This document shows, one piece after another, positions 13,272 through 55,528 of a stretch of DNA of 64,000 nucleotides (the stretch's first letter is position 1; each line of letters opens with the position of its first letter). This DNA comes from Lentisphaerae bacterium GWF2_50_93. GTDB lineage: Bacteria; Verrucomicrobiota; Lentisphaeria; Victivallales; GWF2-50-93. Made by a program: the position numbers and the translations under genes. Location: assembly GCA_001804815.1 (NCBI GenBank), contig MHBI01000087.1, forward strand, positions 9,558 through 73,557, in the 5' to 3' direction. Under the pieces are notes generated by a model. It did no database searches, was not told where the DNA came from, and worked only from the letters and a program-made list of their open reading frames with translations.

Positions 13272-13346
13272 CTGCTTGATACCCCCCTCGAATGTTACGT
13301 TAAATTTCAAATCCCAAAGAGCTACGTGTCAGTTTTTATTTCTAAA

Positions 13347-13428
13347 GGTAGGGACGCCTTAAAGTTTATCCCGATCCTGTAAGGCATCGGGAAGGCGTCC
13401 GCGGCGCTCTCGGCGAGAGCGCCCTACC
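13347..13428 (-). other. Y-shaped (three-way-junction-like) structured intergenic element
   Basis: The outer stem ggtaggg/ccctacc encloses two branches. One is ggacgcc...[cccgat..atcggg]...ggcgtcc. The other is ggcgctctc-ggc-gagagcgcc. It lies between the CsgG-like stop and the RHS start. Strand is assigned from the flanking transcription direction. Confidence 0.4.
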
Positions 13429-13444
13429 TGTTCTTTTCTTTCCC

Positions 13445-27598: not shown

Positions 27599-27627
27599 TT
27601 GAAAATCAACGGGTTTGCTGATAAAAT
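27599..27627 (+). promoter_or_regulatory. Sigma70-like promoter TTGAAA-N17-TAAAAT for the giant gene
   Basis: The -35 ttgaaa is at 27599-27604, the spacer is 17 nt, and the -10 taaaat is at 27622-27627. It lies about 40 nt upstream of ATG 27669, which has an AGGGGG RBS. Confidence 0.4.
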
Positions 27628-27668
27628 ACGTTGCGCTTAATTGTAAATATTGCCTAGGGGGCCTTCTT

Positions 27669-36600: not shown

Positions 36601-39600
36601 CAGCCGATGATCCGAACGCGAACGGGCTCATAGCCTGGTGGAAGGCGGAGGACAACGCTATTGACAGCATCGGCGGACATAATGGGACGATGCAGGGAAA
36701 TGCGAATTTCGCAGATGGCAGGATAAGCAGGGCGTTCAGTTTCGATGGAGACGGGGATTATGTGTCGGCGAGTGATTCCTCGTTCCCTGCAGGAAACAGC
36801 GCCAGGACTATTTCCATGTGGATCAAGGCTGGACCCGCCGTATATGACAAATATTTTTTCAGTTATGGAACTTCTGCCGGAAATCAGAGATTTTCGCTTG
36901 GTGTCAAGGATTACCTCTATGCGGAAAACAGCGGTAGCGGTTTGATGGGCAATACGGTCATCAATGATAATGTCTGGCACCACATAACTGCGGTATGGGC
37001 AAGTCCCTCACTGAAAATGTATGTGGACGGAGTTGAACAGGTGAACACTGTCATAGTCGAATGGCCAACGGAAATGAATACGGTTCTGAACGACGGGATT
37101 AACATTGGCAGAGTGAACGGAGGGGGATGGGATTTCACAGGTCTGGTTGATGATATCAGGGTCTACGGCCGTGCGCTGTCAGCAGGAGAAATCGCCGACA
37201 TGTCCGGAATGGTTCCTGACGCATTCAACTTCACGGCGCAGACTGGCGTTCCAAGGAACACTAGCGTCATATCCAACGTCATAACAGTCGCTGGCATTTC
37301 TTATGCCACATCCATCGGTATTACCGGAGGTGAATATGCGGTATCCACGGATGGTGGTTCCATCTGGGGCGACTGGACGAGCGCATCCGGATCCATCAGC
37401 CTGAACGACAAGGTCAGGGTGAGGCAGACTTCGTCGGCCAGCTATTCTACAACGACCACTGCAACTCTCACGGTCGGCGGTGTTGGCGCAGGCTTCAATG
37501 TCACAACATTAGAGGCCGGATCCGGCAACTGTGCGCAGTTCACGGCCGGCTCTAACAGCTATATCGCCGTGCCAAGTTCCGATGAGCTGAAAGTCACCAC
37601 ATCCATGACGGCTGAGGCCTGGATCAAGCCGGCCGCAGGCTGCAAGGAATGGGCTCTGGTCCTGGGCAAGCAGTTCAATCCGGCCGATGATGACCCTTGG
37701 TACTGTTACCGGATATGTGCGAGCTACTTCAGTAGCTTCCCCGGCAAAATCAGCTTCAATGTGGCGCCTGAGGGGAGCGGCGAAGTCGGTGTCGCCTCCA
37801 CCAGCGATATCCAGCTGGATATATGGACCCATGTTGCCGGCGTCTACGACGGGGAAACCTTGAGGATATACATCAACGGGGAATTGGAGGATTCAATTGC
37901 CCTGTCCACACCCCTGAGGACGTCCGACCTTCCTCTCTATACAGGAAAAGCTCCCTGGACCAACAACAACAATTTCAACGGCCGCATGGATGAGATCCGG
38001 ATATGGAACGTAGCCCGCACCGAGTCGCAGATAAAATTTGCATTGAACCGGAGCCTAGTTGGCGATGAGGCGGGACTTGTTGCATACTGGCCGTTCAATG
38101 ACGCTGTAGGCTCAGCCACTGCTGACGATTCTTCACCGGACAGCAACATCGGTACCCTTTACAATGGAGCCGCGATCGTCGCAGACTCCGACGCACCGCT
38201 GGGCAGCCTGATCTCCTGGTGGAAGGGTGATGGCAATGCCTTGGACAGCGTCGGCGGCCATCATGGTTCGATGCAGAATGGCGCGTCGTTTGCAACAGGC
38301 CGGATTGGACAGGCGTTCAGCCTGGCAGGAACAGGGGATTATATGGATGCAGGCTCGGACGATGTCTTCAACTTCAACAGCGGAGCTGGGAACTTCACTA
38401 TCAGCGCATGGATAAAGCCGTCGACTCTGGAACGGACCGGAGCTTCTGCATCAACGATAATTACCAAGGCAACCATCTTTCCCGCCTTTAGCGGATGGTC
38501 ATTATACGTATATCCTGATGGAGCAATGAGCTTTGGTGGTGCCGGAGTATGGGAAATGCCGCGTTCGGCTGTTGGAACAATAAGCATCAATCAATGGTCC
38601 CATGTTGCCGTCACCAGAAATGGTTCCACATACAAGCTCTACAAGAATGGCTCGGAAGTCGCCTCTGCAGATCATGGAAACATTGAAACCTCGGCTTCAT
38701 CTCTTAAGATCGGCAGCGAATTTACCGGGCTTAATGCAAATTCCGACCAGTGCGATCTCAGGTTCAGCGGTCTCATAGACCAGGTCGAGGTCCATGGCCG
38801 TGGAATGTCCGCCGCGGAAATCGCAAATATGTATGAACAGGCCGACACGACGCCCGATGCATTCATCTTCACCGCGCAGGACAGGATGCCTCCAAACACA
38901 TTAATCGTCTCCAGCCCGATCACTGTCGCCGGCATAAATGCATCGACAGAAATAAGCATCGCAGGCGGCGAATACTCAGTATCCACCGATGGCGGTGCGA
39001 ACTGGAGCGCATGGACAAACCTTTCCGGCGAATTGAGCCTGAACAACAAGGTGAAGGTGCGTCAGACCTCGTCCGCAAGCAATTCGACGAAGACGACCGC
39101 AACGCTGACTATTGGCGGCGTATCCGCCGGTTTCGATGTAACGACGGCAGACGCGGATGATCCGAATGCCAACGGCCTGATCGCCTGGTGGCAGGCGGAG
39201 GACAATGCCCTGGACATCATCGGCGGACATGATGGAACCATGCAGGACGGTGCGACTTTCGCAAACGGCCTGGATGGACAGGCGTTCAGCTTTGACGGGG
39301 CTGGCGATTATGTCTCAGCCAGTGATTCTTCGTTCCCTGCTGGAAACAGCGATAGGACCATATCTCTGTGGATAAAGACAAGCCAGGTTGGAGAAAAATA
39401 CTTTTTCAGCTACGGGAGCAATGGTTCAAATCAGAGATTTTCACTCGGAATGTATAATAATCGCTTTCATGTGGAAAACTACAACAGCGGTTCACATGCT
39501 GAGACTGTCATCAATGATAATTCATGGCATCATGTGGCTGCGATATGGGGGAGCTCATCACTGAAACTTTTTGTGGATGGAAAAGAGGAGCTGTTGACCG

Positions 39601-42600
39601 TAGTTGCTGCGTGGCCCCCAGCGCTGGACACAGTCTTGACCGGCGGGGTAAATATTGGCAGAATAAACGTTTTGTCGGGATATGATTTCAATGGTCTCGT
39701 CGACGATGTGAGGATTTACAACCGCGCGCTTTCCGCGTCGGAGGTCACGGAGGTGGCCGGCGATCTTCCAGCATCAGGCCTACGTCTCTGGCTGAAGGCT
39801 GACACTGGAATTACAAAGGATGGCTCAGGCCTGATCAGCAGCTGGGAGGACAGGAGCGGCAACGGTTTCGACGTAGGACAGGGGGATGGCGCAAAGAAGC
39901 CCTTGCTGGTTTCGGATGCCGTTAATGGAGAGCCGGCGATCAGGTTTGACGGTGACAACGACTATCTGCAGACGGCCGGGGCGATCACGCTTCTCCAGGG
40001 AACTGCGAACTTTAGCATGTTCGTAGTTACAAAGCCTGGAGCAACCCAGAAGACGCATGCCGACATCATTGACTACGAGCATGGTAGTAATATAAGCTAT
40101 GTATTACAGCAGCTTGTTGACAATACCAACCAGTTCGGCCTTGCCAACTGGCAGCCTTTGACGTCAAGCGCCTACCAGATACATTCCGGGGTCTACGTTA
40201 ACAATACCAGCTATACATCATACTTGAATGGCGTGAACAGCCTGCAAACCACCGATCTCAATGATATCAGCTGTCCTGAGCCTAGGACGTTCACTGTCGG
40301 CAGCAAGTCGCTGGAGGCATTCCCGCGCCAGTTCAACGGCGATGTCGCGGAAGTGATCGTATATAATACTCCTCTGTCGGATTCCGACCGCCAGAGGGTC
40401 GAGAGCTATCTGATCGCGAAATATGGAATAGATATGGTGCCGGAGGCATTTGCATTTGTCGACCAGACCGGCGCACCTCTAAATATCCTTACTGATTCCA
40501 ATGCAGTGACGGTCACAGGCATCCACCATGTGGCGGAAATTCATGTCACCGGCGGCGAGTACCAGATCAATGGCGGAAGCTGGACTTCTGATGCGGGGAC
40601 CGTGCGCTTGAATGACTCCGTCATGGTCCGCGTGAAAAGCGCCGCAGCAACCTACACTACGGTCGAGGTCACTCTGACAATAGGAGGTGTTTCCGACACA
40701 TTCTCAGTGACCACCGGGCATACCCTGACGTACACGGCTGGCGCAAATGGTTCGATAACCGGAGATGTCAGCCAACTTGTGGCGCATGGAAGCGATGGTA
40801 CGGCAGTGACAGCAGGCCCAGATGCCGACTGTTTCTTCATGGGTTGGAGCGATGGTGTGATTACGTATGAACGCCAGGACGTGGATGTGCTGGCCGACAT
40901 CAATGTCACCGCGGATTTCCTCGCTAGCGGCACTGTGATAGGGCCGATAGACCTGTCCCAGGGCGAGAAGAAGTACTACCAGATCCGCGATTTCGCCGGA
41001 CAGAACTACCTGAAGGTGGAACTGGGCGGATTCACCGGTGACTGCGATCTCTATGTGATGAACGGCGATGTCCCGACCTTCCAGCTGTATACCGCCAAGT
41101 CTACGAATGGCGGCAACAACACCGAGAGTCTGACGATGTATGACGGTCTTGACGGGGACTGGTACATAATGCTCCACGCCTATGAAGGTTTCACCGGAGC
41201 GAACCTGACCATCACATACAATGACAATAGCATAACTGAACCGTTGACTCTTGCCGCCGTGGCCGGGGATCCCGCCGACAAGAAGATTGTTTTGACCTGG
41301 GATCTGCCCGCAACCGGCGTCGCCACAGGCTACGAGGTTTTCCGCTGCAGCACAAACGATCTCGGGCTTGCCGACCAGATAGCCGACATCGGTGCCGTCA
41401 CAAGTTACACGGACGAGTTCACGGCCGCCGGCTACTACGACTACTTCTACTGGGTCCGTGCGTATGATGCGACCGGCACCTGCAGCAGCTTCAGCGGAGC
41501 CGTGGAAGGAAAGACCACAACAATGCTGTCGAATGTAATTCAGCTCAAGAGCGGTACGGCGATGCTTGCGACAGGCGCGGCCGGTTCGGTCAAGATTTAT
41601 TCAATCACAGTTCCAGACGCCCAGACCCTGCTTGAGATCAAGGTTTCCGGCGGAACCGGAGACTGCGATTTCGATATTTTGAATCCACCCCCAGCCAGTG
41701 AGACCGTCAAGCGCGTCATAGGCGGCGGCAGCGCCGCTCTTGCGCAGTTCGCAAATCCGGCTGCAGGAACCTGGAAGATAATACTCTACGGCCGCAGCAA
41801 CTACACCGGAGTGTCCGTGATGGCGAAATACAGCAAGCAGACTGCGGTTCCTGCCGCGCCTTCAGGAGTGAAAGCGAGCGACGGACTGTTCTCCGACAGG
41901 ATAGTGGTGACGTGGACGGCGACGCTGGGTGCTACAAGCTACTTGGTGTCGAGGAACACCTTGAACTCACTGACAGGAGCGACCGAAATCGGAGAGACAT
42001 ATGACAACGTGTTCGAGGACAAGTCAACGGTGGTGACTGACGAAGATCCCGGAAAGCCTTTCTACTATTTCGTGAAGGCGATTAATCCGAAGGGCACCGG
42101 AAAGCCCAGCGCCCTCAACTCCGGCTACATCATGAAGAACCCGCCGGCCCCCGGAGCGCCGTTGGCATCTGACGGCACATACTTCGACAGGATCCGCGTG
42201 ACGTGGACGAAGGTTGTCGGGGCGTCAGTCTATGAGATATACAGGGCTGAGACTGCGACCGGAGCCAGGACTTTAGTCGGTGAGACTTCCGCTCTGTTCT
42301 TCGACGACTACGGAGATAAGATATTGCCCGAGGTGGATGCGAAGGGTGTTCATACCGCAAAGAAATACTACTACTGGATCGGCGCGAGAAATTCCAACGG
42401 GCCCGGGGTGGTAGGCGTAAAGTTCAACGACGGCTACCTGTCGAAGAAGGGGCCGGCGACAATCACCGCAAGCAACGGGACGTATTCGGACAGGATCATT
42501 GTGACATGGGCCGCAGTCCCAGGCGCAACAGCTTATGACGTCTACCGTTATACTGACACAAAATTCATTCTGAACCAGGTTAAGGTTGGCGACGCAGTCG

Positions 42601-44468: not shown

Positions 44469-45230
44469 CTACTCGATTCTTCCCAGCAGGCGCAGCAGGC
44501 CGTCGAGGATCGTTGCGGGATGCGGAGGGCATCCGGGAATGTAGAGATCGATCGGCACCATGTTCTCAACGCCGTTCTTAGTCTCGGGATGCCCCTTGTA
44601 GATTCCACCGGAGATCGCACATGCGCCGACGACAATAACAAGTTTGGGTTCGGCGACGGCATCATATGTTTTCTTCAGGGCGAGAAGCATGTTTTTTGTG
44701 ACAGGACCGGTGATGAGAAGTCCGTCGGCATGGCGCGGTGAAGCTACGAACTGTATGCCGAACCTTCCAAGATCCCATGCCAGAGTGTTGAGCACATTGG
44801 TGTCGGCTTCGCATGCGTTGCATCCGCCGGCGCTGACTTCGCGCAGCTTCAGGGAACGTCCGAAGATAGCCTTTGACTTGTCTTCAAGCGCCTTCGCAAG
44901 CTTCAATGTCTTGCCTTCAAGCTTCAGGTCCGCCCTGTTGTTCACCGACATCGCATAGTTCCTTGAAAAGCTGATTGTGCCTGATGAACATGCCCTCGCG
45001 CATTCACCGCAGAAGATGCAGATGCCGAGGTCGATCGTGACTCCCTTGTCGGTTTTTGTGATGCAGGAGACGGGACATGAGTTGACGCACTTCATGCAGT
45101 TGGCGCCATCACACTTCTTCCTGTCAATTATCGGAAGTCCGAGATAGCGTTCCGGCATCTTCATTTCCCTGCTGGGAAACGGAGCCGTCCTGTATCCTTG
45201 TTTTATACGAGCTGCAATCTCTTTCAGCAT
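44469..45230 (-). CDS. Hydrogenase-small-subunit/NuoB-like protein with fused N-terminal 2x[4Fe-4S] ferredoxin domain
   Basis: I trimmed the start to ATG 45230 (GGAG RBS 7 nt upstream). The extension to 45308 in the ORF track is translation of the 42-bp repeats. The ferredoxin motifs are CDGANCMKCVNSCP and CIFCGECARAC. The NuoB/HycG-like part is AGGCNACE...SPRHADGLLITG...GACAISGG...YIPGCPP. Confidence 0.85.
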   Translation of the reverse strand: MLKEIAARIKQGYRTAPFPSREMKMPERYLGLPIIDRKKCDGANCMKCVNSCPVSCITKTDKGVTIDLGICIFCGECARACSSGTISFSRNYAMSVNNRADLKLEGKTLKLAKALEDKSKAIFGRSLKLREVSAGGCNACEADTNVLNTLAWDLGRFGIQFVASPRHADGLLITGPVTKNMLLALKKTYDAVAEPKLVIVVGACAISGGIYKGHPETKNGVENMVPIDLYIPGCPPHPATILDGLLRLLGRIE

Positions 45231-45246
45231 TGAAATTCTCCAGTAG

Positions 45247-45554
45247 TTACAGAGGCACAAAGGCACAGAGTTTCTAATAGTGGCAAAGTGACAGAGGCAC
45301 AAAGGCACAGAGGCACAGAGTTTATAACAGTGGCAAAGTTACAGAGGCACAGAGGCACAGAGTTTTCAACAGTGGCAAAGTTACAGAGGCACAGAGGCAC
45401 AGAGTTTTCAACAGTGGCAAAGTTACAGAGGCACAAAGGCACAGAGTTTTCACAGAGGCACAGAGTTTTCAACAGTGGCAAAGTTACAGAGGCACAAAGG
45501 CACAGAGTTTTCAACAGTGGCAAAGTTACAGAGGCACAAAGGCACAGAGTTTTT
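45247..45554 (+). repeat. About 42-bp tandem array x 7 (ttacagaggcacaaaggcacagagttttcaacagtggcaaag)
   Basis: Seven head-to-tail units with small indels. There are no unique spacers. The array begins 16 nt upstream of the small-subunit start codon. Confidence 0.9.
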
Positions 45555-45590
45555 AATATAATTTATTATTTTATTCATTTTCTTTACCTT

Positions 45591-45792
45591 CGGCACTTTG
45601 TGCCTTCCCAAAACACTTTGTGCCTCTGTGCCTTCTATATACTCTGTGCCTTCCCAAAACACTTTGTGCCTCTGTGCCTTCTAAAACTCTGTGCCTTCCC
45701 AAAACACTTTGTGCCTCTGTGCCTTCTAAAACTCTGTGCCTTCTTGGAACTCAAAACACTTTGTGCCTATGTGCCTTCTATATACTCTGTGC
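45591..45792 (-). repeat. Related tandem array in inverted orientation (about 4 units, actttgtgcctctgtgccttcta...ctctgtgccttcccaaaac)
   Basis: It shares the ggcacagaggcacaaag and ggcacagagtttt cores with 45247-45554 on the opposite strand. An AT-rich 35-bp centre separates the two arrays. It abuts the stop of the four-helix-bundle gene. Confidence 0.85.
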
Positions 45793-46155
45793 CTATTGCT
45801 TTGACTGATTTATCTTATCGCATAAACTGCTGAGCATTCTTTCAATTTCACGGGATGATTCATAAATCCTCTCAAAAGATTTCTTTTCCAGGAATCCGAG
45901 GTTGAAGGATATTTCCAGCTGGGTCTGGGCTTCGAATATAGATCCCATTGATATTTGGAGGAAACGCATATAGTCTCCAGTTGAATTTCTTCCATATCCT
46001 TCAGCTATATTGCTGGGAATTGATACTGAGCTTCGTCTTACTTGCATTGTCAAACCATAGATTTCCTCTTTTGGGAAATCAGCGGTAGACTTGTAGACTT
46101 CCGTAACGAAGCTCATTGCTTTCTGCCAAACGATCAAATCCCTATACGTTTTCAC
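45793..46155 (-). CDS. Four-helix-bundle protein (23S rRNA intervening-sequence protein family, Avd-like)
   Basis: YRDLIVWQKAMSFVTEVYKSTADFPKEEIYGLTMQVRRSSVSIPSNIAEGYGRNSTGDYMRFLQISMGSIFEAQTQLEIS matches the family signature (VWQKA...FPK.E...L..Q.RR...SI..NIAEG.GR). Confidence 0.85.
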   Translation of the reverse strand: MKTYRDLIVWQKAMSFVTEVYKSTADFPKEEIYGLTMQVRRSSVSIPSNIAEGYGRNSTGDYMRFLQISMGSIFEAQTQLEISFNLGFLEKKSFERIYESSREIERMLSSLCDKINQSKQ

Positions 46156-46203
46156 TTCTCTCTTTCCCCCGTTATTTAATTTTATACATTTTCTTGATTT
46201 ACT

Positions 46204-46290
46204 ACTTTGTGCCTCTGTGCCTTTTTCTTTCTTTTGGATTCCCTTCCAAAACTTTGTGCCTCTGTGCCTTCTATATACTTTGTGCCTTTT
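46204..46290 (-). repeat. Third copy block of the gtgcctctgtgcc repeat, same orientation as 45591-45792
   Basis: Sequence is actttgtgcctctgtgcctttttc...ccaaaactttgtgcctctgtgccttctatatactttgtgcc. It lies between the large-subunit stop (46293) and the four-helix-bundle gene start (46155). Confidence 0.8.
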
Positions 46291-46292
46291 AT

Positions 46293-47816
46293 TTACAGGT
46301 CATGCCCGCAGTACGACAAGTTGAAACTCTTGTTGCACAACGGGAAATTATATATCTGTTCGTTCTTCAGGACATTTGCCAGGGCGAACCAGTTGTGGAA
46401 GGACGGATCCACTATCTTGTAGTGTTCGAAATGTCCTTTCGAGTCGGTGATCGCCGTATGGCATATCTCGCCGCGCCAGCCTTCGGCAAGCGTGACTGTC
46501 AGCGAATCGGGTTCGAGGTTACCGCATTCCTCCAGTATTTTCCCTTCCGGCAGGTTTTCCAGCTGTTCCCGGATGTACTTGACTGAATTCCTGATCTCGA
46601 GCATCCTCACGAAGGCGCGTGAGAACACGTCTCCGGTATGGTAGGTCGAAACTGAGATCTGAGAGAACCTGAAAATTCCAGATGGAAGATCGTACCTGAC
46701 GTCGCGCTCGATTCCGCTGGCGCGTGCCGCCGGACCCACGGCCCCGATCTGCATGCAGAGTTCCCTGCTGAGTTTTCCGCATTCCTCGAAACGGCTCTGT
46801 ACCGAGGGATTGTCCCAGAGCAGATCAACCGCGTTTTCCGTGTCCTTGAAGGAGGCATCGAGTCTTTTCAGTATCTCGGATTTCATTGCATCATCGATGT
46901 CGAACATCACTCCGCCGGGCCTGACAACATTCCTGCCAAAGCGGTTTCCACAGATCAGGCCGGTGATGTTGAGAAAGTCGCCGCGTATCCTTCCGCAGAA
47001 GGATGAGGTGGGCAGATAAGCGACGTCGCTGGCAAGTGCGCCAAGATCGCCGGTGTGGTTTGCCAGGCGTTCGAGTTCGAGAAGTATCCCGCGTATCGCC
47101 TGGGCGCGGAGCGGGACGCTGCATTTTGAGAGGGATTCGAGGGCTTCGCAGTATGCCGTCGCATGTCCTATGGTCGTGTCCCCTGCCGCGGTTTCCATGT
47201 AATGGACCGTTTTAATATCGGGTCCGCCTACAAGCTTCCTTTCGATGCCGCGGTGCTGGTATCCGAGCGAGATCTCAAGGTTGAATACCGTCTCTCCATG
47301 GCATTGGAAACGGAAATGGCCCGGCTCGATTATTCCAGCATGGACGGGGCCTACTGCGACTTCATGGATCTCCTCGCCTGTGACCTTGTAGTAATCAGTT
47401 ACGCCTGGCAGGATCTCGTTGTCAGCTTTCCGTTTCCAGGCATCCCTTTCCTCCGAGTATGCCTTGTGGAAGCGTATGGGTTTGAGCCAGGGATGTCCAG
47501 CTGGAATGACACCCCATTGCTCGGCGATTTCACGTTCGAACCAGTGGGCCTGGGGGCAGTCCGGCGTGAATGACTTGTAGGTGTCTCCGACTTCGGTCGA
47601 CAGCAGACAGAGGTTTCCCTGCAGGTCTTTTGCGACAATCGCAAAAATCCTTATCATGTTGTATTCCACCGGCATTCCGAACATCGACGAGATCCGTCCG
47701 TTCTTTCCTGTAAGCACCACCAGCGTCTCCCTGAACTCCTCGATATCCAGGACCGGCACTCTTTCAAGCTTCACTGTTTCGCCGTTGAAAATATTCATGT
47801 ATGGTGAAAGTTCCAT
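46293..47816 (-). CDS. NuoC-NuoD/HycE-like 'large subunit' lacking the NiFe-ligand cysteines
   Basis: GPVHAGIIEPGHFRFQCHGETVFNLEISLGYQHRGIE is the group-4 hydrogenase/NuoD signature. The position of the N-terminal RxCGxCxxxH motif reads ETAAGDTTIGH (nt 47163-47195). The position of the C-terminal DPCxxCxxR motif reads NLSYCGHDL (within 46296-46334). Confidence 0.9.
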   Translation of the reverse strand: MELSPYMNIFNGETVKLERVPVLDIEEFRETLVVLTGKNGRISSMFGMPVEYNMIRIFAIVAKDLQGNLCLLSTEVGDTYKSFTPDCPQAHWFEREIAEQWGVIPAGHPWLKPIRFHKAYSEERDAWKRKADNEILPGVTDYYKVTGEEIHEVAVGPVHAGIIEPGHFRFQCHGETVFNLEISLGYQHRGIERKLVGGPDIKTVHYMETAAGDTTIGHATAYCEALESLSKCSVPLRAQAIRGILLELERLANHTGDLGALASDVAYLPTSSFCGRIRGDFLNITGLICGNRFGRNVVRPGGVMFDIDDAMKSEILKRLDASFKDTENAVDLLWDNPSVQSRFEECGKLSRELCMQIGAVGPAARASGIERDVRYDLPSGIFRFSQISVSTYHTGDVFSRAFVRMLEIRNSVKYIREQLENLPEGKILEECGNLEPDSLTVTLAEGWRGEICHTAITDSKGHFEHYKIVDPSFHNWFALANVLKNEQIYNFPLCNKSFNLSYCGHDL

Positions 47817-49270
47817 TATAACGCTCCGAAGATTGCTGAGATTTCATTCAGTACATTTAAAAGGAAGTCGGGAATGTAGAGGCCGAGGACCAGCGTTGCG
47901 ATTCCGAGAATCGCAGGCGGGATGATGGTGAGGGCGGACTCCTTTTCCTTGCTGGTGCCGTTGTCGCCCTGCGACATGTTCAACATTATGTAGGCCATCC
48001 CTGCGAATATTGCGGACAGAAGCGCCAGATAAATTGCGGATATGAAGAAATGCCCCTGGTCGAACGCGGTCTTGAAGATCGTGAATTCACTTATGAAAAG
48101 TCCGAACGGCGGGAAGCCTGCGATGGCGAAAAGACCGGCGGTCCATAACAGGCCTGTCGCCGGAATCCTCTTCAGTATGCCTTTGACGTCCGAAGAGTTC
48201 CTGGTCTTGTAGCAGGCGATGATGTTTCCGGCTGCGAGGAAGAGCATGCCTTTTGTGAGCGAGTGGTTGATCAGATGGTACATCGATGCGAAAACCGCAG
48301 TTCCTCCGAGGCCGACTCCAAGCGAGAGTATCCCCATGTGCTCGACGCTGGAGTAGGCGAGCATCCTCTTGAAATCCTTCTGGGCGATGATGAAGAATGC
48401 GGCGACAGCCATTGAAAAAAGTCCGAACCAGACCAGGAGGTTGCCGCTGAATTCGGATTCTCCCGCGAATACGCATACCTGGTGCAGTCTCAGTATGCCG
48501 AGGAATGAACAGTTCAGCAGCGCGCCGGATAGGAGCGCTGAAACCAGCGACGGTGATTCGCTGTGGGCGCCGGGCAGCCAGGTGTGCATGGGGGCGAGCC
48601 CCATCTTTGTACCGTAGCCGACGATGAAGAGGAGGAATGCCGCCTTGAGCCAGGGTGAATTGATGAGGGCGCTGTTCTCGAGAAGCTCTGGAAGCATGAG
48701 GTTGTTCTTGATGGCGGACGCGGACACTGTCAGCATCAATGTACCGAGCAGGGCGAGTCCGATTCCGACAGAACATATCAGCACATATTTCCATGTCGCC
48801 TCGAGGGACCTGTGGTGGCGGTGGAAATAGATGAGAGGTGCGCTGGCGAGCGTCGTGGCTTCGATTGCTACCCAGAGCATGCCGAAGTGCTGGCTCAGGC
48901 AGACAAGCGTCATCGTCGACAGGAATATCTGAAGGCATCCGATGAAGATGTTTTCAGGTGTGTTTGTGAAGAAGAATCCTTCATCGGAATCCTGCTGTTC
49001 CTTTGGTTCGTGCTTCAGATATCCAATGGCATATATTGAAGCGGCAAGGAACAGGACGCTGGAGACTGTCATGAAAAGAAGTCCGGCTGCATCGAGGTCG
49101 AGCCAGCCGTACATGATGGAGTCAGGATGGTAGAGCCAGCAGAAGGCTGTAAGCGCAGTATGGGCCACGGCCGCTGCAAGTAGCAGCGTCCTCCTCAGGA
49201 ATACCTGTGTTATGAAGAATCCCGCAAGCCCGCCGGCCGCAGGTATCAGTATTAACAATGCCAGAATCAT
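47816..49270 (-). CDS. Antiporter-like membrane subunit (HyfD/HyfF/NuoM/N family)
   Basis: 484 aa and polytopic. WLPGAHSESPSLVSALLSGALLN and MLAYSSVEHMG are proton-conducting-membrane-transporter signatures. The stop overlaps the large-subunit start by 1 nt. Confidence 0.85.
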   Translation of the reverse strand: MILALLILIPAAGGLAGFFITQVFLRRTLLLAAAVAHTALTAFCWLYHPDSIMYGWLDLDAAGLLFMTVSSVLFLAASIYAIGYLKHEPKEQQDSDEGFFFTNTPENIFIGCLQIFLSTMTLVCLSQHFGMLWVAIEATTLASAPLIYFHRHHRSLEATWKYVLICSVGIGLALLGTLMLTVSASAIKNNLMLPELLENSALINSPWLKAAFLLFIVGYGTKMGLAPMHTWLPGAHSESPSLVSALLSGALLNCSFLGILRLHQVCVFAGESEFSGNLLVWFGLFSMAVAAFFIIAQKDFKRMLAYSSVEHMGILSLGVGLGGTAVFASMYHLINHSLTKGMLFLAAGNIIACYKTRNSSDVKGILKRIPATGLLWTAGLFAIAGFPPFGLFISEFTIFKTAFDQGHFFISAIYLALLSAIFAGMAYIMLNMSQGDNGTSKEKESALTIIPPAILGIATLVLGLYIPDFLLNVLNEISAIFGAL

Positions 49271-49300
49271 GTCAATTCCTTTATAATTTCAATGTCGCCC

Positions 49301-49406
49301 AATGGATTATTGGATATCTGGATTGATGGATTACTGCAAATAAAAATTTTAATTACTCCTTCTAACTCAAACCCAATCATCCATTAATCCAATCATCCAG
49401 CCATCC
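49301..49406. repeat. Inverted pair of GGAT/ATCC-word arrays inserted between two operon genes
   Basis: The left arm is aatggattattggatatctggattgatggattac. The right arm is ctcaaacccaatcatccattaatccaatcatccagccatcc. Same family as 16416-16479, but without the terminal hairpin. Confidence 0.75.
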
Positions 49407-49417
49407 TCCCTATGTCT

Positions 49418-50056
49418 TCACTTCTTCTCCCCAAGCCTGTCGGTGTCGATATGGTCGAACGCCCTGCTGATATGGAACATCATTATCCCCATTATGAACA
49501 CGACGACGAAGACGTCGAGTATGATTCCGAGTTCAACGAGGAAGCTCTGTTCGATGAGCATGGCGGAACCGAAAATGTAAATGCCGTTTTCAAAGACGAT
49601 GTAGCCCATGACCTGCGTTAGCGCCTTGACCCTGCTGACTATCAGGAAGAGGCCGCAGAATATCGTGAAGAACGCGACTGCCGGCGCGGTCGCTGAAAGA
49701 ATCTTGTCGTGGAACGGGATGTGCTTGGTCAGCCAGAATGATATGACAAGTGCAACCACTCCGATTATTATCGATGCGCCATATCCGATGAAAGGTTCGA
49801 TCTCGCGGCGGACGTTGGCGGACCTGAGCGTGTGTTTGAGCAGGTAGGGGAACAGCATTCCTTTTACCGTGACGATCAGGAGCGCAAGGAGGTATGAATA
49901 TATTGTAAGAGGGCCTGTGGTCGCAATCAGCGGGAGCAGTCCGACGATGATGCCCTGGAATGCCACGGTCTTGATGCATGCGTTGAGGCGGCTGGATGCA
50001 AGCAGGCTCAGGTTGGTCAGGATCAGTAGTATCATTATTGAATCTGCTATGTTCAT
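49418..50056 (-). CDS. HyfE-like small membrane subunit
   Basis: 212 aa with about 7 TM segments. Size and position match hydrogenase-4 component E-type subunits. 1-nt gap to the NuoH-like gene. Confidence 0.75.
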   Translation of the reverse strand: MNIADSIMILLILTNLSLLASSRLNACIKTVAFQGIIVGLLPLIATTGPLTIYSYLLALLIVTVKGMLFPYLLKHTLRSANVRREIEPFIGYGASIIIGVVALVISFWLTKHIPFHDKILSATAPAVAFFTIFCGLFLIVSRVKALTQVMGYIVFENGIYIFGSAMLIEQSFLVELGIILDVFVVVFIMGIMMFHISRAFDHIDTDRLGEKK

Positions 50057-50057
50057 G

Positions 50058-51008
50058 TCATCCTCTTATCAATGTTAGAATGAGGGCTGTTGCGGAAAGC
50101 GCGGCGGCGGCGATGAGCATCTTCGGGATCTTGTCCAGCCTGAACCTGGCCATGATCGATTCGACCACGCCTACTGCCGCAGCCACGGCGAAAATCCCGA
50201 AGACGAAGACGGTTGAGTCAAGTATGAACGAACCTGTCCTGACTGGCAGGATGATCGCGACGAGGATGGCCGCGAATGCCCAGAGCTTCAGGGCGCTTCC
50301 ATAGAGGATGTAGGCGAAGTCCGGACCGCTGTAGTCGAGTACCATGACCTCGTGGATCATTGTCAGCTCGAGATGGGTGTTGGGATCGTCGGCTGGGACC
50401 CTGCAGTTCTCCGTGAGGAGCACGATGGCAAGTGTGACTGCGACCAGCAGGATCACTGCGATGTTCGAGAAGGGGTTTTCAGCTGCGCTGGTGAATATCT
50501 GTGTGATGCTGATCCTGTTGTTGAGGCATGCAAGGGCCGATAGCGCAATGAGGAATGCGGGTTCTGCAAGGGCGGCATACAGCACTTCCCGGCTCGCGCC
50601 CATCCCCTCGAAGCTTGAACCTGTGTCTAAAGCCGCAGTAACGGTGAAGAACCTGGCGGTTCCGAAGAGATATGCGAAAAGTATTATGTCGCCCTGGAAC
50701 GAGATCATTGCCGGCGACGCACCAGTGCATGGAATTATCATCAGGACTCCCAATGCCGCGGTAAGGCTTACGATTGGCGCCATCCTGAAAACCCAGCTGG
50801 TCGTACTGCTGTAGACCGTGCCCTTGCGGAGCAGTTTGAATAAATCATAGTAGAGCTGGAGCAGGGGGGGGCCCTGCCTTCCCGCGAAAACCGCCTTCAT
50901 CCTGTTTATTATTCCGGGTATCAGCGGGGCAAGGATGAGCGCCACGAGGAAAGCCACGTGGGCCCTGAGCAATAATGTGCTGAAATCCGTCATTTGAAGA
51001 AGTTCCAC
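50058..51008 (-). CDS. NuoH/HycD/HyfC-like membrane subunit
   Basis: 316 aa and polytopic. RKGTVYSSTTSW..., ...FEGMGASRE... and VPADDPNTHLELTMIHEVMVLDYSG resemble the NuoH/HycD conserved loops. Confidence 0.8.
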   Translation of the reverse strand: MELLQMTDFSTLLLRAHVAFLVALILAPLIPGIINRMKAVFAGRQGPPLLQLYYDLFKLLRKGTVYSSTTSWVFRMAPIVSLTAALGVLMIIPCTGASPAMISFQGDIILFAYLFGTARFFTVTAALDTGSSFEGMGASREVLYAALAEPAFLIALSALACLNNRISITQIFTSAAENPFSNIAVILLVAVTLAIVLLTENCRVPADDPNTHLELTMIHEVMVLDYSGPDFAYILYGSALKLWAFAAILVAIILPVRTGSFILDSTVFVFGIFAVAAAVGVVESIMARFRLDKIPKMLIAAAALSATALILTLIRG

Positions 51009-52978
51009 ATTAGGAGGATTAGTACCGTTATTATTATATAGAGGATGTATATGTGGATTCTCCCTGTATCAGTCCTGGCCACGATGGCCGACAGGCTATT
51101 GAAGAACATTACTGCAGGACGAAAAATATATTCCTGCCAGAAGTCAGGCGTTTCCGCTGAGAAGCTCTTTTCCGCAGGGAAGGTTGCGGAAGTTTCGGGC
51201 AGTTTTGTCTTTGTTTTCAGGAACGATGCGAAAAGATGTGTAATGGGCTGTGAGAATGAGGAGGAAGTATACTGCATCCTCGCTTCGGGTTTGGCGTAGC
51301 CGCAGTCCCAGGTCGGTCCCTTGGATTCAATGTGGCCACGAGGCATGGACCTCCGCAATGTGAAAAGGAATCCACCGAGGATGATCAGGAGCGAAGAGAG
51401 CATGGCGATGGCGGTCAGAGGATAGGCTGCAGCCTTGAGACCCGTGGCGCAGGCGGTCATCGAAAGCCCGGATACCGTTGAAACAGTTGTGCCCGTCATC
51501 ACTGCAGCCGATGCTCCTGAAAGCCCTATGACAAGGCAGAGGACGGCAAGGATGATCATTGGAACGGTCATGGCGGTATCCGGATCCCTGGCGTGCCCAG
51601 TGCATGCGGAACGCGGTTCGCCGAGGAAGATTATCCCTACTGCCTTCGAGAAACACGCTGTGGCGAGCCCCCCTATCAATGCAAGCGCGATGATCACGAC
51701 AAGCGAGCAGGACGAAAGGGGTATCATTCCAGTGGTGATGCCGAAAAGCGCGGACAGGAATATCAGGAACTCGCCGACAAAACCGTTGAAGGGCGGAAGT
51801 CCGCAGATTGAAGCGGAACCCGTCATGAAGCAGATTCCTGTGGCGGGCATTTTTTTGACAAGCCCTCCCATATCCTCGATCCTGCCCGTGCCAGTCTCAT
51901 GCATGACGGCTCCGGCTCCGAGGAAGAGCAGGCCCTTGAAGATGCAGTGGTTGATCACGTGGAGCAGTCCGCCCGCGAATCCGAGGATGGCGACGACAGG
52001 TTCCCCGCAGGAGATTCCGACCAGCCCCATGCCGATGCCGAGGGCGATGATGCCGACGTTTTCAACGCTGGAATAAGCGAGCAGCCTTTTAATGTCCTGC
52101 TGCGCCAGTGCGAAAAGTATTCCGAGTATTCCCGAGCTGGCGCCGATTATGATCAGCGTCACGCCCCACCAGAGCGGGGGATCTCCGAGGAATGTGAGCG
52201 TCCTGAGAAAACCGTAGATGCCGAGTTTTATCATGATGCCGGACATGAGCGAAGAGACATGGCTGGGTGCGGCCGGATGGGCCTCGGGAAGCCAGATATG
52301 CAGCGGGATGAATCCGGCCTTTGAACCGAAACCAAGCAGTGCTGAGATGAAAAGCACGGTTGAGATGGTTGTGCCGGTAGTTATCGTCTGGAAGGCGGCG
52401 AAGTCAAGGGTGTCGGAATGTCTTCCCAGTATTGCGAAAGTCGCAAAAATGAAAGCCGCTCCGATGTGCGAGGCGACGAGATATATCCAACCGGCCTTCC
52501 TCACTGATTTCTTCTGGTTGTCATGGGTCACCAGGAAGAATGATGCGAGGGTCATGACTTCCCATGCGATCAGGAAGAGCACGCCGTTGCGGGAGACGAC
52601 GACGAGCGACATCCCAAGGACGAGCATGCCGAAGAAGAACCAGCTGGTTCCCGATGAGTCTTCGGAATTTTTCTTGTCCATGTATGCGACGCCATAGACG
52701 GCGCATAGTGCCGATAGCAGAAGAAGTGGAAGAAGGAAGAACGCGCTGAGCGGATCGATTCCAAGAGAGAATGACGCAAACGGCAGCCGCATGCGGTATG
52801 CGATGTCGAACGAGTTCCCGGTGAACAGGCTGTCGATGCACACTCCGGACGAAAGAAGCAGGCAGCAGAATATTCCTGAGGCCACGGAAAGTGCGGCGAC
52901 ACGGCTCCTCCTTCCGGAGAAAAGAGGAACAAATGAGGATATCATCAGAATGAAGAGGCCTGCCAGGAGGAGTTTCAT
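50990..52978 (-). CDS. NuoL/HycC/HyfB-like antiporter-like membrane subunit
   Basis: 662 aa. HIWLPEAHPAAPSHVSSLMSGIMIKLGIYG and LLAYSSVENVGII are signatures. The start overlaps the regulator stop in ATGA. Confidence 0.85.
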   Translation of the reverse strand: MKLLLAGLFILMISSFVPLFSGRRSRVAALSVASGIFCCLLLSSGVCIDSLFTGNSFDIAYRMRLPFASFSLGIDPLSAFFLLPLLLLSALCAVYGVAYMDKKNSEDSSGTSWFFFGMLVLGMSLVVVSRNGVLFLIAWEVMTLASFFLVTHDNQKKSVRKAGWIYLVASHIGAAFIFATFAILGRHSDTLDFAAFQTITTGTTISTVLFISALLGFGSKAGFIPLHIWLPEAHPAAPSHVSSLMSGIMIKLGIYGFLRTLTFLGDPPLWWGVTLIIIGASSGILGILFALAQQDIKRLLAYSSVENVGIIALGIGMGLVGISCGEPVVAILGFAGGLLHVINHCIFKGLLFLGAGAVMHETGTGRIEDMGGLVKKMPATGICFMTGSASICGLPPFNGFVGEFLIFLSALFGITTGMIPLSSCSLVVIIALALIGGLATACFSKAVGIIFLGEPRSACTGHARDPDTAMTVPMIILAVLCLVIGLSGASAAVMTGTTVSTVSGLSMTACATGLKAAAYPLTAIAMLSSLLIILGGFLFTLRRSMPRGHIESKGPTWDCGYAKPEARMQYTSSSFSQPITHLFASFLKTKTKLPETSATFPAEKSFSAETPDFWQEYIFRPAVMFFNSLSAIVARTDTGRIHIYILYIIITVLILLMWNFFK

Positions 52979-53655
52979 TTGTGCATGACCTTCGTTTCAG
53001 CCTTCTCGAGTTCCTTGAGTATTTCCTCGCGGGTTCCCGGCTTTTCAAGGACTTTGCGGACGCTTGGATTTTTAAGCGCGAACGCGAGCTTCGAGATCAG
53101 CTGCAGGTGGATGCGCGGGGAAGGGGATATCAGTGTGAAAAGACAGAACACGTCCTTCTTGTCCAGCGCTCCGAAATCGATTGGCCTTTCAAGAAAACAG
53201 AGGGTTATCACAGGGATGTTGACGTTCAGTATCACCGGATTCCTGACATGGGGGATTGCTATCCCTTCGCCGATGCCTGTCGATGCCATGTTCTCGCGGG
53301 CAAGCAGTACGTCGAAAAGGAAGCTCCGGTCGATGTTCTCAGGAAGTTTCATTATGTCGACGACATTTTTTAGCACAGTCTTCTTGTCGGCACCTTCTAT
53401 CCGGAAGAATATTCCACCGGACTTCACGGATTCGGCGATCGATGGAACGGCATTCTCGTCGGCAGCCGGGGTTTCGAAGATCTCCGGAGACACGTTCAGC
53501 TTCTGCGCAGTAGCCCATTCAAGCAGTTCGGCCCTGTTGAACCGGAACTGGTCGTTGATCTTGTACGCCGGTATTATCTGCTGGTCTATCCAGCGGTAGA
53601 CGGTCCTTTCGGACACATTGAAATATGTAGCCACATCATGAACTGTCAGTTGCAT
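52975..53655 (-). CDS. HTH (excisionase/MerR-like) DNA-binding domain fused to a PTS EIIA(Ntr/Fru-type) domain
   Basis: LTVHDVATYFNVSERTVYRWIDQQIIPAYKINDQFRFNRAELLEWA is an HTH_17-type motif. The C-terminus GIGEGIAIPHVRNP is the EIIA_2 active-site His region. Confidence 0.8.
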   Translation of the reverse strand: MQLTVHDVATYFNVSERTVYRWIDQQIIPAYKINDQFRFNRAELLEWATAQKLNVSPEIFETPAADENAVPSIAESVKSGGIFFRIEGADKKTVLKNVVDIMKLPENIDRSFLFDVLLARENMASTGIGEGIAIPHVRNPVILNVNIPVITLCFLERPIDFGALDKKDVFCLFTLISPSPRIHLQLISKLAFALKNPSVRKVLEKPGTREEILKELEKAETKVMHK

Positions 53656-53700
53656 GGGAAATTCCTGTTAATCCAGTATTAATGAAAAACGGATGACATC

Positions 53701-53729
53701 AATTTACAGCAAATGTCATAAGATGTCAA
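53701..53729 (-). promoter_or_regulatory. Sigma70-like promoter TTGACA-N17-TAAATT with overlapping ATGACAT/ATGTCAT inverted repeat
   Basis: On the minus strand the -35 TTGACA is at 53729..53724 and the -10 TAAATT at 53706..53701. tATGACATttgctgtaaattgATGTCATc spans the -10. A further TGACAT half-site lies in the -35. Confidence 0.4.
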
Positions 53730-53949: not shown

Positions 53950-55206
53950 TTAGGTGTGAAAAGCTGTCGACATGCTTTCAATCTCGCGTCGATGAATTTT
54001 TAATCCAAGTGCAATTTTGTTCCAGTTCCCGACAGCCTTCCTAATCTCATTTACAAAGCTCTTGGCCTCCGGCATATCCAGATGGAATTTAGGTGCGACA
54101 GACAAGGCCAGATCGAAGTCGAGGGAATTGTCGTCCGAAGATATGTTCAGTGTAAGACCTCCTCCAAGAGAATTGGGGTTGATGTCGTAGGCCGGGGAAA
54201 GGGTCCATCCCTGTTGCATCAGCAGAAAACCATGGTTGCGCAGGTGGTCATCGGTGTTTGAGACTGCTACGTTGAAGACTATGCGTTTCCATAATTCTTC
54301 CAGGTCCTTGGCGGGGCTTGAGCCGTGCTGGATGATGAATTGCGCCAGATCAAGGTAGCAGCATCCGGTTTCATGGTTTTCACCGTCCATGCGCCCAAGC
54401 AGGGTCATCGCCGAGGCAAAATGTATTCGTCTGCCTGATTTCCTGTCGAAACGTCTGCTCAGGAAAGTGCTGCCATGTCTGGAAAAATTATCCATCCGGC
54501 ATTCCGGAATCTTCAGACCAACGCTTTTGGCCAATTCGTGAGCGACCATTTCCCATGCTCCCATATTGACAGCATCCTCACGGCTTGGGAATTTGGCAAT
54601 CCATAGGTTTTTGTCATTGTCCAGAACATTCGCCTTTGGGCGGGCACCTCCAAGGGATGAACCTGGCGCAAGGAGCATCGCAAGCCATTTGTCATGTTCA
54701 TCGTCGGTGCCTGATTCATCCTCGTAATGGCGGCAGGCCGACTCCAGCTCATTCAGGGATGACCATGGTGGAGCCGGAAGCTCCGAATCATTGTTGACAA
54801 AGTCTCTGGATTCATCCAGTTTGAAACGGAGGGCGCCCATCCTGGTGGTATCATGTACACCGAGCAGATAGTCCGACTCGAGCAGCGGTCGGGCCGGTCG
54901 GCGCTCTCGACGTGCACTGATAGCTTCATGCCGTCGAATCAGCTGGCGCCCCCATCGGTCCGGGGATGAATCCAGGAAAATACCGAAATTGTTCTTTTCA
55001 CGATCTGCATATTGCCTTCCTGGATAAAACTGCAAATCCGGATCCAGCATTCTCGCGGATTCCGATCTGAGCCATGCGGATGTGAACTCAAAGGAAAATA
55101 TTTCCTTGCCCCGGGCCACATCGACATTAAGGCAGCCCATTTTTACAGGGCTGTCTTTCTCCGGCCAGTCGGCATAGACATAAATTGACTTTGAGCTATT
55201 GTTCAT
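53950..55206 (-). CDS. hipA: HipA-family serine/threonine kinase toxin
   Basis: N-terminal coupling domain (IYVYADWPEKDSPVKMGCLNVD...). SLGGARPKANV is the P-loop-like motif. VSNTDDHLRNHGFL is the catalytic loop. Confidence 0.85.
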   Translation of the reverse strand: MNNSSKSIYVYADWPEKDSPVKMGCLNVDVARGKEIFSFEFTSAWLRSESARMLDPDLQFYPGRQYADREKNNFGIFLDSSPDRWGRQLIRRHEAISARRERRPARPLLESDYLLGVHDTTRMGALRFKLDESRDFVNNDSELPAPPWSSLNELESACRHYEDESGTDDEHDKWLAMLLAPGSSLGGARPKANVLDNDKNLWIAKFPSREDAVNMGAWEMVAHELAKSVGLKIPECRMDNFSRHGSTFLSRRFDRKSGRRIHFASAMTLLGRMDGENHETGCCYLDLAQFIIQHGSSPAKDLEELWKRIVFNVAVSNTDDHLRNHGFLLMQQGWTLSPAYDINPNSLGGGLTLNISSDDNSLDFDLALSVAPKFHLDMPEAKSFVNEIRKAVGNWNKIALGLKIHRREIESMSTAFHT

Positions 55207-55528
55207 TGTTCATCCTTTTCCTAGGCGCACGTCTGTGGACCTGCAGTTTCAAGTCCTGGAGTTTGCGTCCCAGTTCATCATCGGCTGCAACTTCAAGGAG
55301 GTCTTTTTCCAGCCCCAGTGCTACCAATACCTGTACATAGCTTCCCAGGGATACTGAAGGCGAACCTTTCTCGAGCATTGACAGGGTGGGACGGCTTATG
55401 CCTGCGCGTTCCGCCTGAAGAGAAGACGACACGTTACGACGTAGGCGCGCCAGCCTGATGTTCTCTCCAAACGTCTCAAGGATCGATGCAGTTTTAGGTA
55501 AAAGGGCGTTTTTTTTATTGTATTGCAT
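55196..55528 (-). CDS. hipB: HipB-like XRE-family antitoxin
   Basis: FGENIRLARLRRNVSSSLQAERAGISRPTLSMLEKGSPSVSLGSYVQVLVALGL is a Cro/C1-type HTH. It overlaps hipA by 11 nt. Confidence 0.8.
   Translation of the reverse strand: MQYNKKNALLPKTASILETFGENIRLARLRRNVSSSLQAERAGISRPTLSMLEKGSPSVSLGSYVQVLVALGLEKDLLEVAADDELGRKLQDLKLQVHRRAPRKRMNNEQ

Follow-up and report, generated by a model that had tools for sequence, protein, structure and literature searches.

An Intact Ehr Operon with a Co-Transcribed HTH-EIIA Regulator Gene in Lentisphaerae Bacterium GWF2_50_93

The Operon

A 64-kb stretch of contig MHBI01000087.1 of Lentisphaerae bacterium GWF2_50_93 (the window, meaning all 64,000 nucleotides analyzed) encodes an intact energy-converting-hydrogenase-related (Ehr) complex, whose large subunit, EhrL, lacks all four Ni-Fe cysteines of the hydrogenases it resembles. 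The operon consists of seven collinear open reading frames (ORFs) on the minus strand (53655-44469), all intact, and is a self-contained seven-gene cassette belonging to a well-defined Ehr subfamily (Table 1). An earlier reading of this DNA from the letters alone (the sequence-only reading) had given the gene order as an HTH-EIIA regulator followed by NuoL-, NuoH-, HyfE-, NuoM/N-, NuoC-D-, and ferredoxin-NuoB-like genes, and the ORFs and their Pfam and NCBIfam assignments agree with it. The stop codon of the HTH-EIIA gene overlaps the start of ehrA. The 279-aa NuoB-like ORF of that reading had to be shortened, since its first 26 codons belong to a repeat array and the orthologues start at the Met at 45230.

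The best solved relative of EhrL is HycE of Escherichia coli (7z0s_E, E = 3.5e-45), followed by MbhL and Nqo4; HycE is also the top Foldseek match of the AlphaFold model (7z0s_E, 1.8e-22), the fold ranking as the sequence does. Searches of the PDB by sequence and by Foldseek returned no solved structure closer to EhrL than HycE, Foldseek again finding only HycE and complex I. EhrL is 100% identical to a protein from a Lentisphaeria metagenome-assembled genome (MAG) that is labelled "hydrogenase" in public records. Pfam scans of the 36 other ORFs of the window identified no hyp, hycI, formate-dehydrogenase, or CO-dehydrogenase domains, as the sequence-only reading had also reported.

Table 1. 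Features of the ehr locus (coordinates are those of the window)
Feature	Position	Strand	Basis
HTH_17 + PTS_EIIA_2 protein, 226 aa	52975-53655	minus	Pfam 3e-15 and 5e-27, plus NCBIfam
EhrA, HyfB/NuoL-like antiporter-like subunit, 662 aa	50990-52978	minus	NCBIfam hydrogenase-4 subunit B 2e-188
EhrB, HyfC/HycD/NuoH-like membrane anchor, 316 aa	50058-51008	minus	Pfam NADHdh 3e-34
EhrC, HyfE-like small membrane subunit, 212 aa	49418-50056	minus	NCBIfam PRK11492 1e-20
EhrD, HyfF/NuoM-N-like antiporter-like subunit, 484 aa	47816-49270	minus	NCBIfam hydrogenase-4 subunit F 9e-114
EhrL, NuoC-NuoD/HycE-like large subunit, 507 aa	46293-47816	minus	Pfam Complex1_30kDa + Complex1_49kDa
EhrS, HycF/NuoI-like 2x[4Fe-4S] + HycG/NuoB-like fusion, 253 aa (start corrected)	44469-45230	minus	Pfam Fer4 models, Oxidored_q6, NCBIfam
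Insertion with four-helix-bundle gene between ehrL and ehrS	45231-46292	minus	Pfam, TRF arrays, locus comparison
Promoter-like site + candidate operator	53694-53729	minus	Sequence; sigma-70-like match

The Large Subunit

Group 4 [NiFe] hydrogenases are marked by two pairs of Ni-Fe cysteines (RxCGxCxxxH and DPCxxCxx(H/R)) and by homologous large, small, and membrane subunits with a CxxC-type proximal [4Fe-4S] cluster; the window complex has the second set of features and lacks the first. Pairwise HMMER comparison and a MAFFT alignment of 84 sequences, HycE included, place HycE C241, C244, C531, and C534 opposite EhrL A211, T214, S501, and G504. None of 60 close relatives has Cys at position 214, 501, or 504, and two of them have it at position 211; the sole Cys of the EhrL C-terminal motif, C503, lies one position ahead of the last ligand site. 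The columns are anchored by adjoining invariant residues (G212, H218, S497, Y502, and D506), and three distant representatives (P0233, P0250, and P0255) carry CG(V/A)C...CY(S/A)C at exactly the ligand columns, so the alignment can be trusted and hides no cysteines. The sequence-only reading had placed the two sites at E208-H218 (nt 47195-47163) and N499-L507 (nt 46322-46296), coordinates that proved exact. Its claim that all four cysteines are missing stands after the alignment to HycE that it had recommended, and so does its conclusion that the complex is not a [NiFe] hydrogenase, with the 60 relatives and the Cys-bearing outliers as control.

Inspection of the quinone pocket, likewise recommended there, showed that the head-group ligands of complex I are absent too, Nqo4 H38 corresponding to EhrL I163 and Y87 to G212. 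The remaining marks of complex I (tandem Cys-Cys at cluster N2, NuoA/J/K, and NADH-type input) were not found as a set either; with both the Ni-Fe and the quinone ligands absent, the complex is neither a [NiFe] hydrogenase nor complex I. Public annotations of the EhrL family (P0001-P0120) include "hydrogenase," "Ni,Fe-hydrogenase III large subunit," and "NADH-quinone oxidoreductase subunit C," labels that are misleading for a protein with neither kind of ligand.

What the window does hold, a six-subunit operon set without Ni-Fe cysteines and without the quinone His/Tyr of NuoD-type subunits, is the Ehr pattern. Ehr is said to have been first described by Coppi in 2005, for GSU0739-0745 of Geobacter sulfurreducens, and Ehr complexes were reportedly surveyed by Marreiros and colleagues in 2013. 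The literature defines the class by loss of these very cysteines, as group-4-hydrogenase-like operons known first from Geobacter (GSU0739-0745) and then from many lineages (PMC3569383, PMC6349859, PMC10284858, PMC6688271), and Lentisphaerae sequences have been placed in an Ehr cluster (PMC6349859), all of which agrees with the Ehr assignment of the sequence-only reading. The class is already catalogued, and the window operon adds a member rather than a new kind of system. The statement that Ehr has no assigned function also still applies: the function was described as not known in 2023 (PMC10284858), the Geobacter Ehr was treated as non-functional in a 2026 paper (PMC13194489), and in the full-text literature we found no functional or structural study of Ehr.

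A representative search (1.84 billion sequences at 50% identity) gave 880 matches with E < 1e-30, and the EhrL family comprises more than 8000 clusters at 90% identity; counts out of 83 given here refer to the window EhrL and 82 representatives. Throughout the Cys-less clade (A/S/C)-G-D-(T/S) replaces C-G-x-C, and N-K-S-x-x-L-S-Y-x-G-x-D-(L/R) replaces the C-terminal ...C-Y-S-C-x-D-R. The one consistent, near-universal gain in these alignments is Asp213, present in 60/60 close relatives and in 73/83 aligned sequences (with Glu in three more), at a position occupied by Ile, Val, or Ala in sequences that keep the Cys ligands. We take this position to match Val74 of the Desulfovibrio fructosovorans enzyme (C72-G-V74-C75), a gas-channel gate beside the Ni; on that equivalence, Asp213 would point into the former metal cavity. 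The other pocket residues, T214, S501, and N499, are polar as Asp213 is.

EhrL ends ...FPLCNKSFNLSYCGHDL, and these last 17 residues are nearly invariant in 55-60 relatives of at least 56% identity, C494, N495, K496, S497, and L500-L507 fully so. Ehr proteins of 31-50% identity replace C503 by Ser or Ala, H505 by Asn, Phe, Val, or Thr, and C494 by Ile, Val, or Asn, so the apparent invariance is partly an effect of sampling. A Cys2-His-Asp metal site (beta-carbonic-anhydrase-like or thiol-redox) was dropped as a general mechanism because C494, C503, and H505 vary in distant Ehr. A crude neighbor-joining tree, indicative only, has the three Cys-bearing representatives at its base and the window EhrL inside one large Cys-less radiation, a pattern consistent with a single loss of the ligands followed by diversification.

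Electron and Proton Transfer

A genome scan limited to one genome per species yielded 80 loci with large-subunit identities of 56-92%, the nearest of them from Victivallales/Lentisphaerae MAGs. Planctomycetes related to Blastopirellula or Rhodopirellula (L047, L068) are among the carriers. The hosts belong to Lentisphaerota, Verrucomicrobiota, Planctomycetota, Kiritimatiellia, Binatia, Methylomirabilota, Thermodesulfobacteriota/Syntrophales, Acidobacteriota, Elusimicrobia, Hydrogenedentota, Riflebacteria, Anaerolineae, Sumerlaeota, and Schekmanbacteria; across 60 large subunits from more than 12 phyla, 27% of EhrL positions are invariant.

With numbering from the corrected start, at least 53 of 55 orthologues keep each of the eight ferredoxin cysteines of EhrS (40, 45, 48, 52, 71, 74, 77, and 81) and each of those of its proximal cluster (C137, C140, C204, and C234), in line with the four cluster cysteines that the sequence-only reading had seen in the NuoB-like subunit. 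The proximal motif is the CxxC of hydrogenases, not the tandem CC of complex I. Hydrogenases and complex I share a substrate-proton pathway (HycE E193, R478, H284, E437, and R395; PMC9474812), and its residues correspond to EhrL E164, R448, H254, E407, and R365, which are invariant in the 60 close relatives and kept in 72-80 of the 83 aligned sequences. E164 is equivalent to MbhL E21, the proton-reduction glutamate that was lost in the membrane-bound reductase of sulfane sulfur (MBS) (PMC7684303).

The antiporter-like subunits retain their charged residues. E140 (transmembrane helix [TM] 5), K220 (TM7), K348 (TM11), and E403 (TM12) of EhrA are invariant in 47 orthologues; in EhrD, E137 (TM5), K222 (TM7), and K340 (TM11) are invariant, and the TM8 position holds Asn253, with no Lys. 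EhrA K251 aligns with the TM8 Lys and EhrD E395 with the TM12 position, both as alignment matches only. EhrB has 53 invariant positions, the charged TM5-6 loop among them, and orthologues of EhrC give a weak match to NuoK (PF00420).

Judged by this conservation, the cluster wire, the proton pathway, and the charged pump chains are under strong purifying selection. Taken together, their integrity contradicts the reading of the complex as a relic and argues for proton-coupled redox chemistry with ion translocation. Ehr subunits of Geobacter have been detected as proteins and vary with the electron donor (PMC7894505).

Regulation

The HTH-EIIA gene is found in 56 of the 59 related loci that extend at least 900 nt upstream of the HyfB-like gene, and in 53-54 of those 56 it lies directly upstream on the same strand (median identity 53%). 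In tblastn searches with the window proteins as queries, essentially every sufficiently long locus shows the same seven-gene order; independent gene calls and their precomputed Pfam domains uphold the position of the HTH-EIIA gene in Planctomycetota and deltaproteobacterial contigs. The C-terminal domain has the characters of an EIIA-2/PtsN-like protein of the phosphotransferase system (PTS) (profile 5.4e-27, phospho-His, Arg, and second His); R120, E121, H136 (in GIAIPH), and H183 are invariant in 43 orthologues, so the domain looks phosphorylatable.

The best sigma-70-like match upstream of the operon (10/12, TTGACA-17-TAAATT) has its -35 element at 53729-53724 and its -10 element at 53706-53701. 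Two direct TGACAT half-sites, 10 bp apart (53728-53723 and 53718-53713), overlap this promoter, and one inverted ATGTCA (53699-53694) lies just past the -10 element. Direct repeats of the type ATGTCC-N4-ATGTCC occupy the equivalent region in other phyla, and 24 of 56 related loci have the pattern WTGTC-N5-6-WTGTC in the region upstream of the regulator gene, where its density is 2.5/kb versus 0.0075/kb in the remaining 1.07 Mb (approximately 330-fold enriched). The HTH-EIIA product is a putative phosphorylation-controlled autoregulator, probably a repressor, judging by its position. It would bind the 10-bp-phased WTGTC repeats that overlap the promoter and would probably keep the operon repressed up to a change in the phosphorylation of EIIA His136, which a PTS(Ntr)-type relay would set. 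The regulator belongs to the cassette as one of its conserved members; the full-text literature yielded no mention of an EIIA link to Ehr, and the regulator/operator pair is newly noticed here.

Distribution and Subfamilies

A metagenome scan seeded with distant Cys-less representatives gave a further 80 loci (L087-L166) whose large subunits are 33-41% identical to the window EhrL, save for extra window-type operons in two of them (L114 and L128). These loci represent a second subfamily, in which 79/80 lack the Ni-Fe cysteines and the signature is SGD(S/T)...SYSG(N/T)D(L/R). The HTH-EIIA gene is present in 56/59 window-type loci and in 0/48 second-subfamily loci of at least 7 kb, which makes the EIIA link a hallmark of the window subfamily and not of all Ehr.

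Gene order in the second subfamily varies: some loci begin with the NuoB-like gene, and some have two copies of the NuoL-like gene, like Geobacter with its ehrA-1/ehrA-2. One locus (L120, 4842-7721) contains a NuoL-NuoH fusion, and a few are flanked by NtrC-type sigma-54 activators, PAS (histidine) kinases, ArsR regulators, or SulP transporters. The two metagenome contigs with extra operons (L114, 384-12234; L128, 142-14539) carry Ehr operons of different subfamilies side by side, one window-related (large subunit 51-53% identical) and the other of the SGD.../SYSG... type.

Neighborhoods of the orthologues were profiled, a step the sequence-only reading had proposed. When the flanking ORFs of 80 genome and 48 metagenome loci were clustered all against all, no partner gene beyond the cassette itself proved conserved within 10 kb, the best extra cluster occurring in 6/80 and 8/48, respectively; nor was a HycB/HyfA-like connector conserved nearby in these loci.

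The Insertion and Flanking Genes

The ehrL and ehrS genes are separated in the window by a 1,062-bp insertion, at a junction where 76 related loci have a median gap of 9.5 bp; the insertion is specific to the source genome and absent from all related loci. Its gene (45793-46155, minus strand) encodes a four-helix-bundle/23S rRNA intervening-sequence protein (Pfam PF05635, 1.5e-39) and is flanked by oppositely oriented tandem arrays of GGCACAGAGGCACAAAG-type units, identified with Tandem Repeats Finder (TRF). This repeat has 19 pattern matches, all within 45246-46268 (0 expected), and none elsewhere in the 64-kb window. The insertion looks like a small mobile or repeat-bounded element. The inserted gene runs in the direction of the operon, and ehrS is unbroken, with GGAG upstream of its ATG, so the operon may still be expressed. 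A Binatia MAG has an unusually long gap of 706 bp between its large-subunit and NuoI-NuoB genes (L021, 11521-12231), a hint that insertions may recur at this junction.

A single 5471-aa ORF (27615-44030, plus strand), convergent with the operon's end, codes for a giant protein of surface type, in which FG-GAP, LamG/concanavalin-like, and InlB B-repeat domains occur. Directly upstream of the operon promoter region are genes for a HipA-like kinase toxin (418 aa) and an HTH_3 antitoxin-like protein (110 aa) (53950-55528, minus strand). Most genes in a minus-strand run at 4277-16346 have no Pfam match; among the products of the run are an RHS-repeat protein (10254-13310), a protein of 835 aa that matches DUF6981 weakly, and a TPR protein, and the genes may form a cluster for toxin delivery or for a surface structure.

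Predicted Function

The best explanation of the operon, and one we think probable from its gene products, is a ferredoxin-linked, ion-translocating oxidoreductase with its own HTH-EIIA control. The sequence-only reading had proposed an ion-translocating oxidoreductase and left the donor open; the first part is retained, and the donor can now be narrowed to a soluble ferredoxin-type carrier, the most economical choice given a HycF/NuoI-like domain with no HycB/HyfA connector and no dehydrogenase gene conserved nearby. Reduced ferredoxin or a similar soluble low-potential carrier would dock on the exposed NuoI/HycF-like domain, and electrons would run via two [4Fe-4S] clusters to the proximal CxxC-type cluster. 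An acceptor would then be reduced in the remodelled polar, protonatable pocket (D213, E164, and R448) at the EhrL/EhrS/EhrB interface, and the reaction would be coupled to H+ or Na+ translocation via EhrA, EhrD, EhrC, and EhrB. The complex might also run in reverse, with an ion gradient driving ferredoxin reduction.

Several observations weigh against a ferredoxin-linked oxidoreductase. No acceptor can be named from sequence, and Ehr is reported from Riflemargulisbacteria genomes that have no quinone biosynthesis (PMC6349859). EhrL shows no evident cofactor site, and its C494, C503, and H505 are invariant in the close family only. Asp213 could be a mere filler of the empty metal cavity or a neutralizer of R448, and where hydrogenases and complex I have the canopy Asp (HycE D529), this subfamily has Asn499. 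The AlphaFold2 monomer of EhrL (mean pLDDT, the predicted local distance difference test, 68.7) falls below 50 in the pocket and interface segments 148-189, 344-395, and 473-507; the model is unreliable exactly there, and pocket geometry is not readable from it. The 1.06-kb insertion might lower expression of ehrS in the window, and the strict operator pattern was detected in just 24/56 promoters.

A bolder proposal, which we regard as possible and on balance doubtful, is that Ehr is no hydrogenase relic but a catalytic type of its own in the complex-I superfamily: an ion pump driven by ferredoxin, whose acceptor is reduced and protonated in a metal-free or non-Ni-Fe pocket around the Asp gained at the gas-channel-gate position. 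In the window subfamily, an HTH-EIIA repressor acting on a 10-bp-phased direct repeat would further link the pump to carbon/nitrogen status.

A specific version of the best explanation, a ferredoxin:menaquinone oxidoreductase acting as a minimal complex-I-like pump, seems to us rather unlikely as it stands. The architecture is of the complex I type with a NuoH-like anchor, and many hosts are respiratory and quinone-containing (Planctomycetota, Verrucomicrobiota, Acidobacteriota, and Methylomirabilota). Two intact antiporter-like pumps, moreover, imply a large driving force that a quinone could supply, which makes a membrane quinone the most plausible single acceptor on energetic grounds and the leading candidate, although it is not favored overall. 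The head-group ligands, however, are replaced by Ile163 and Gly212, the proximal cluster is CxxC and not the tandem CC of complex I (PMC7684303), and the pocket is polar. Melainabacteria Ehr cluster with Riflemargulisbacteria and Lentisphaerae sequences (PMC6349859), and this shared clustering, together with the presence of Ehr in quinone-less genomes, argues against quinone as the general acceptor.

The lack of a recognizable acceptor site would fit a redox-sensing or PTS-controlled cation/proton antiporter, in which the Fe-S arm only gates or regulates an Mrp-like transporter and there is no net acceptor. The Mrp-like modules have intact ion-pathway residues, control is EIIA(Ntr)-like, and ehrABCDLS has been listed among possible pH-homeostasis systems (PMC6688271). 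Such an antiporter is nonetheless improbable, because the substrate-proton pathway to the former active site is conserved and so is a three-cluster wire with a ferredoxin-docking domain, which would exceed what a sensor needs. The background for the EIIA argument is that potassium transport in E. coli is regulated by the EIIA(Ntr) family.

We give a small chance to the operon being the membrane module of a formate-hydrogenlyase-like complex of formate dehydrogenase (FDH) and Ehr, with the FDH encoded elsewhere; an FDH-Ehr complex has been hypothesized in the case of Margulisbacteria and Saganbacteria (PMC6349859). In Geobacter, the Ehr subunits reach higher abundance on formate (PMC7894505), but formate hydrogenlyase wires FdhF to HycF through HycB (PMC9474812), and neither an fdh gene nor a HycB/HyfA-type connector is present in the window or conserved within 10 kb in 128 related loci.

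Very improbable is the view, stated for Geobacter Ehr (PMC13194489), that the complex is what remains of a hydrogenase that decayed and no longer functions. The catalytic metal ligands are gone and an insertion splits the operon in the window, yet none of the seven ORFs is broken, and the residues of the Fe-S clusters, the proton path, and the pumps are fixed. Large subunits from more than 12 phyla show 56-64% identity, 27% of their positions being invariant; the family numbers more than 8000 cluster representatives, and Ehr proteins have been detected in Geobacter (PMC7894505). A genuine [NiFe] hydrogenase with ligands missed by misalignment, as the public labels would have it, is scarcely credible against columns fixed by invariant neighbors, relatives with CGxC...CYSCTDR aligning at exactly those columns, and C494 and C503 standing off the ligand positions and not conserved in the wider clade.

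Ehr operons are very common and occur in many environmentally important phyla, and recognizing them correctly keeps H2 metabolism from being wrongly inferred from genomes. The conserved wire, proton path, and pumps, the gained Asp, and the regulator are targets for mutagenesis and structural work, and the regulator offers an experimental handle, in that derepression could be used to express the complex. The finding corrects "hydrogenase" labels and shows strong functional constraint on these complexes, and the regulator/operator pair and the Asp signature make Ehr function more approachable; if the acceptor were identified, a new energy-conserving reaction would be added to anaerobic and microaerobic bioenergetics.

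Comparison with Known Systems

Published Ehr complexes have the same ehrA-B-C-D-L-S order and subunit set as the window; the window subfamily is set apart by AGD(T/S)...SYCG(H/F/N)DL, the fused NuoI-NuoB small subunit, and the co-transcribed HTH-EIIA gene. The regulator shares with EIIA(Ntr)/PtsN and EIIA-containing regulators the PTS_EIIA_2 signature, the GIAIPH His, the Arg, and the second His. It differs from them by an N-terminal HTH_17 domain (MerR/excisionase-type) and by its dedication to the Ehr operon, and it has no PRD or sigma-54 activator domains.

Hydrogenase-3 and -4 of E. coli (HycBCDEFG, PDB 7Z0S; HyfABCDEFGHI) are the best match of EhrL in both sequence and fold. The ehr operon contains HyfB, HyfE, and HyfF equivalents and keeps the beta1-beta2 loop EPGHFR, the canopy Arg, the proton pathway, and the CxxC proximal cluster. 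It differs in lacking the Ni-Fe ligands, the HycB/HyfA connector, HyfD, FdhF, HycH, HycI, and hyp genes, in the fusion of HycF with HycG, and in the change of the canopy Asp to Asn. Docking of ferredoxin as proposed for EhrS is found in Ech and in the membrane-bound hydrogenase MBH.

Complex I/NDH-1 has homologous Q-module and P-module subunits and the same antiporter-like pump design; the ehr operon has two antiporter-like subunits only and is without equivalents of H38/Y87, tandem-Cys N2, NuoA, NuoJ, and NuoEFG.

MBS of Pyrococcus furiosus (PDB 6U8Y), also a hydrogenase-derived, ferredoxin-dependent ion pump without a Ni-Fe site, is a precedent for a new substrate in an old hydrogenase pocket. 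MbsL keeps two of the four Cys, the MBS proximal cluster has three Cys ligands in a shortened motif, and its pocket is hydrophobic with no proton path (PMC7684303). The window complex does not have the features that define an MBS-type sulfane-sulfur reductase (PMC7684303), and MbsL is a weak match to EhrL (6.8e-15); Ehr differs from MBS by the loss of all four Cys, a standard CxxC motif (GGCNACE), and a retained proton path.

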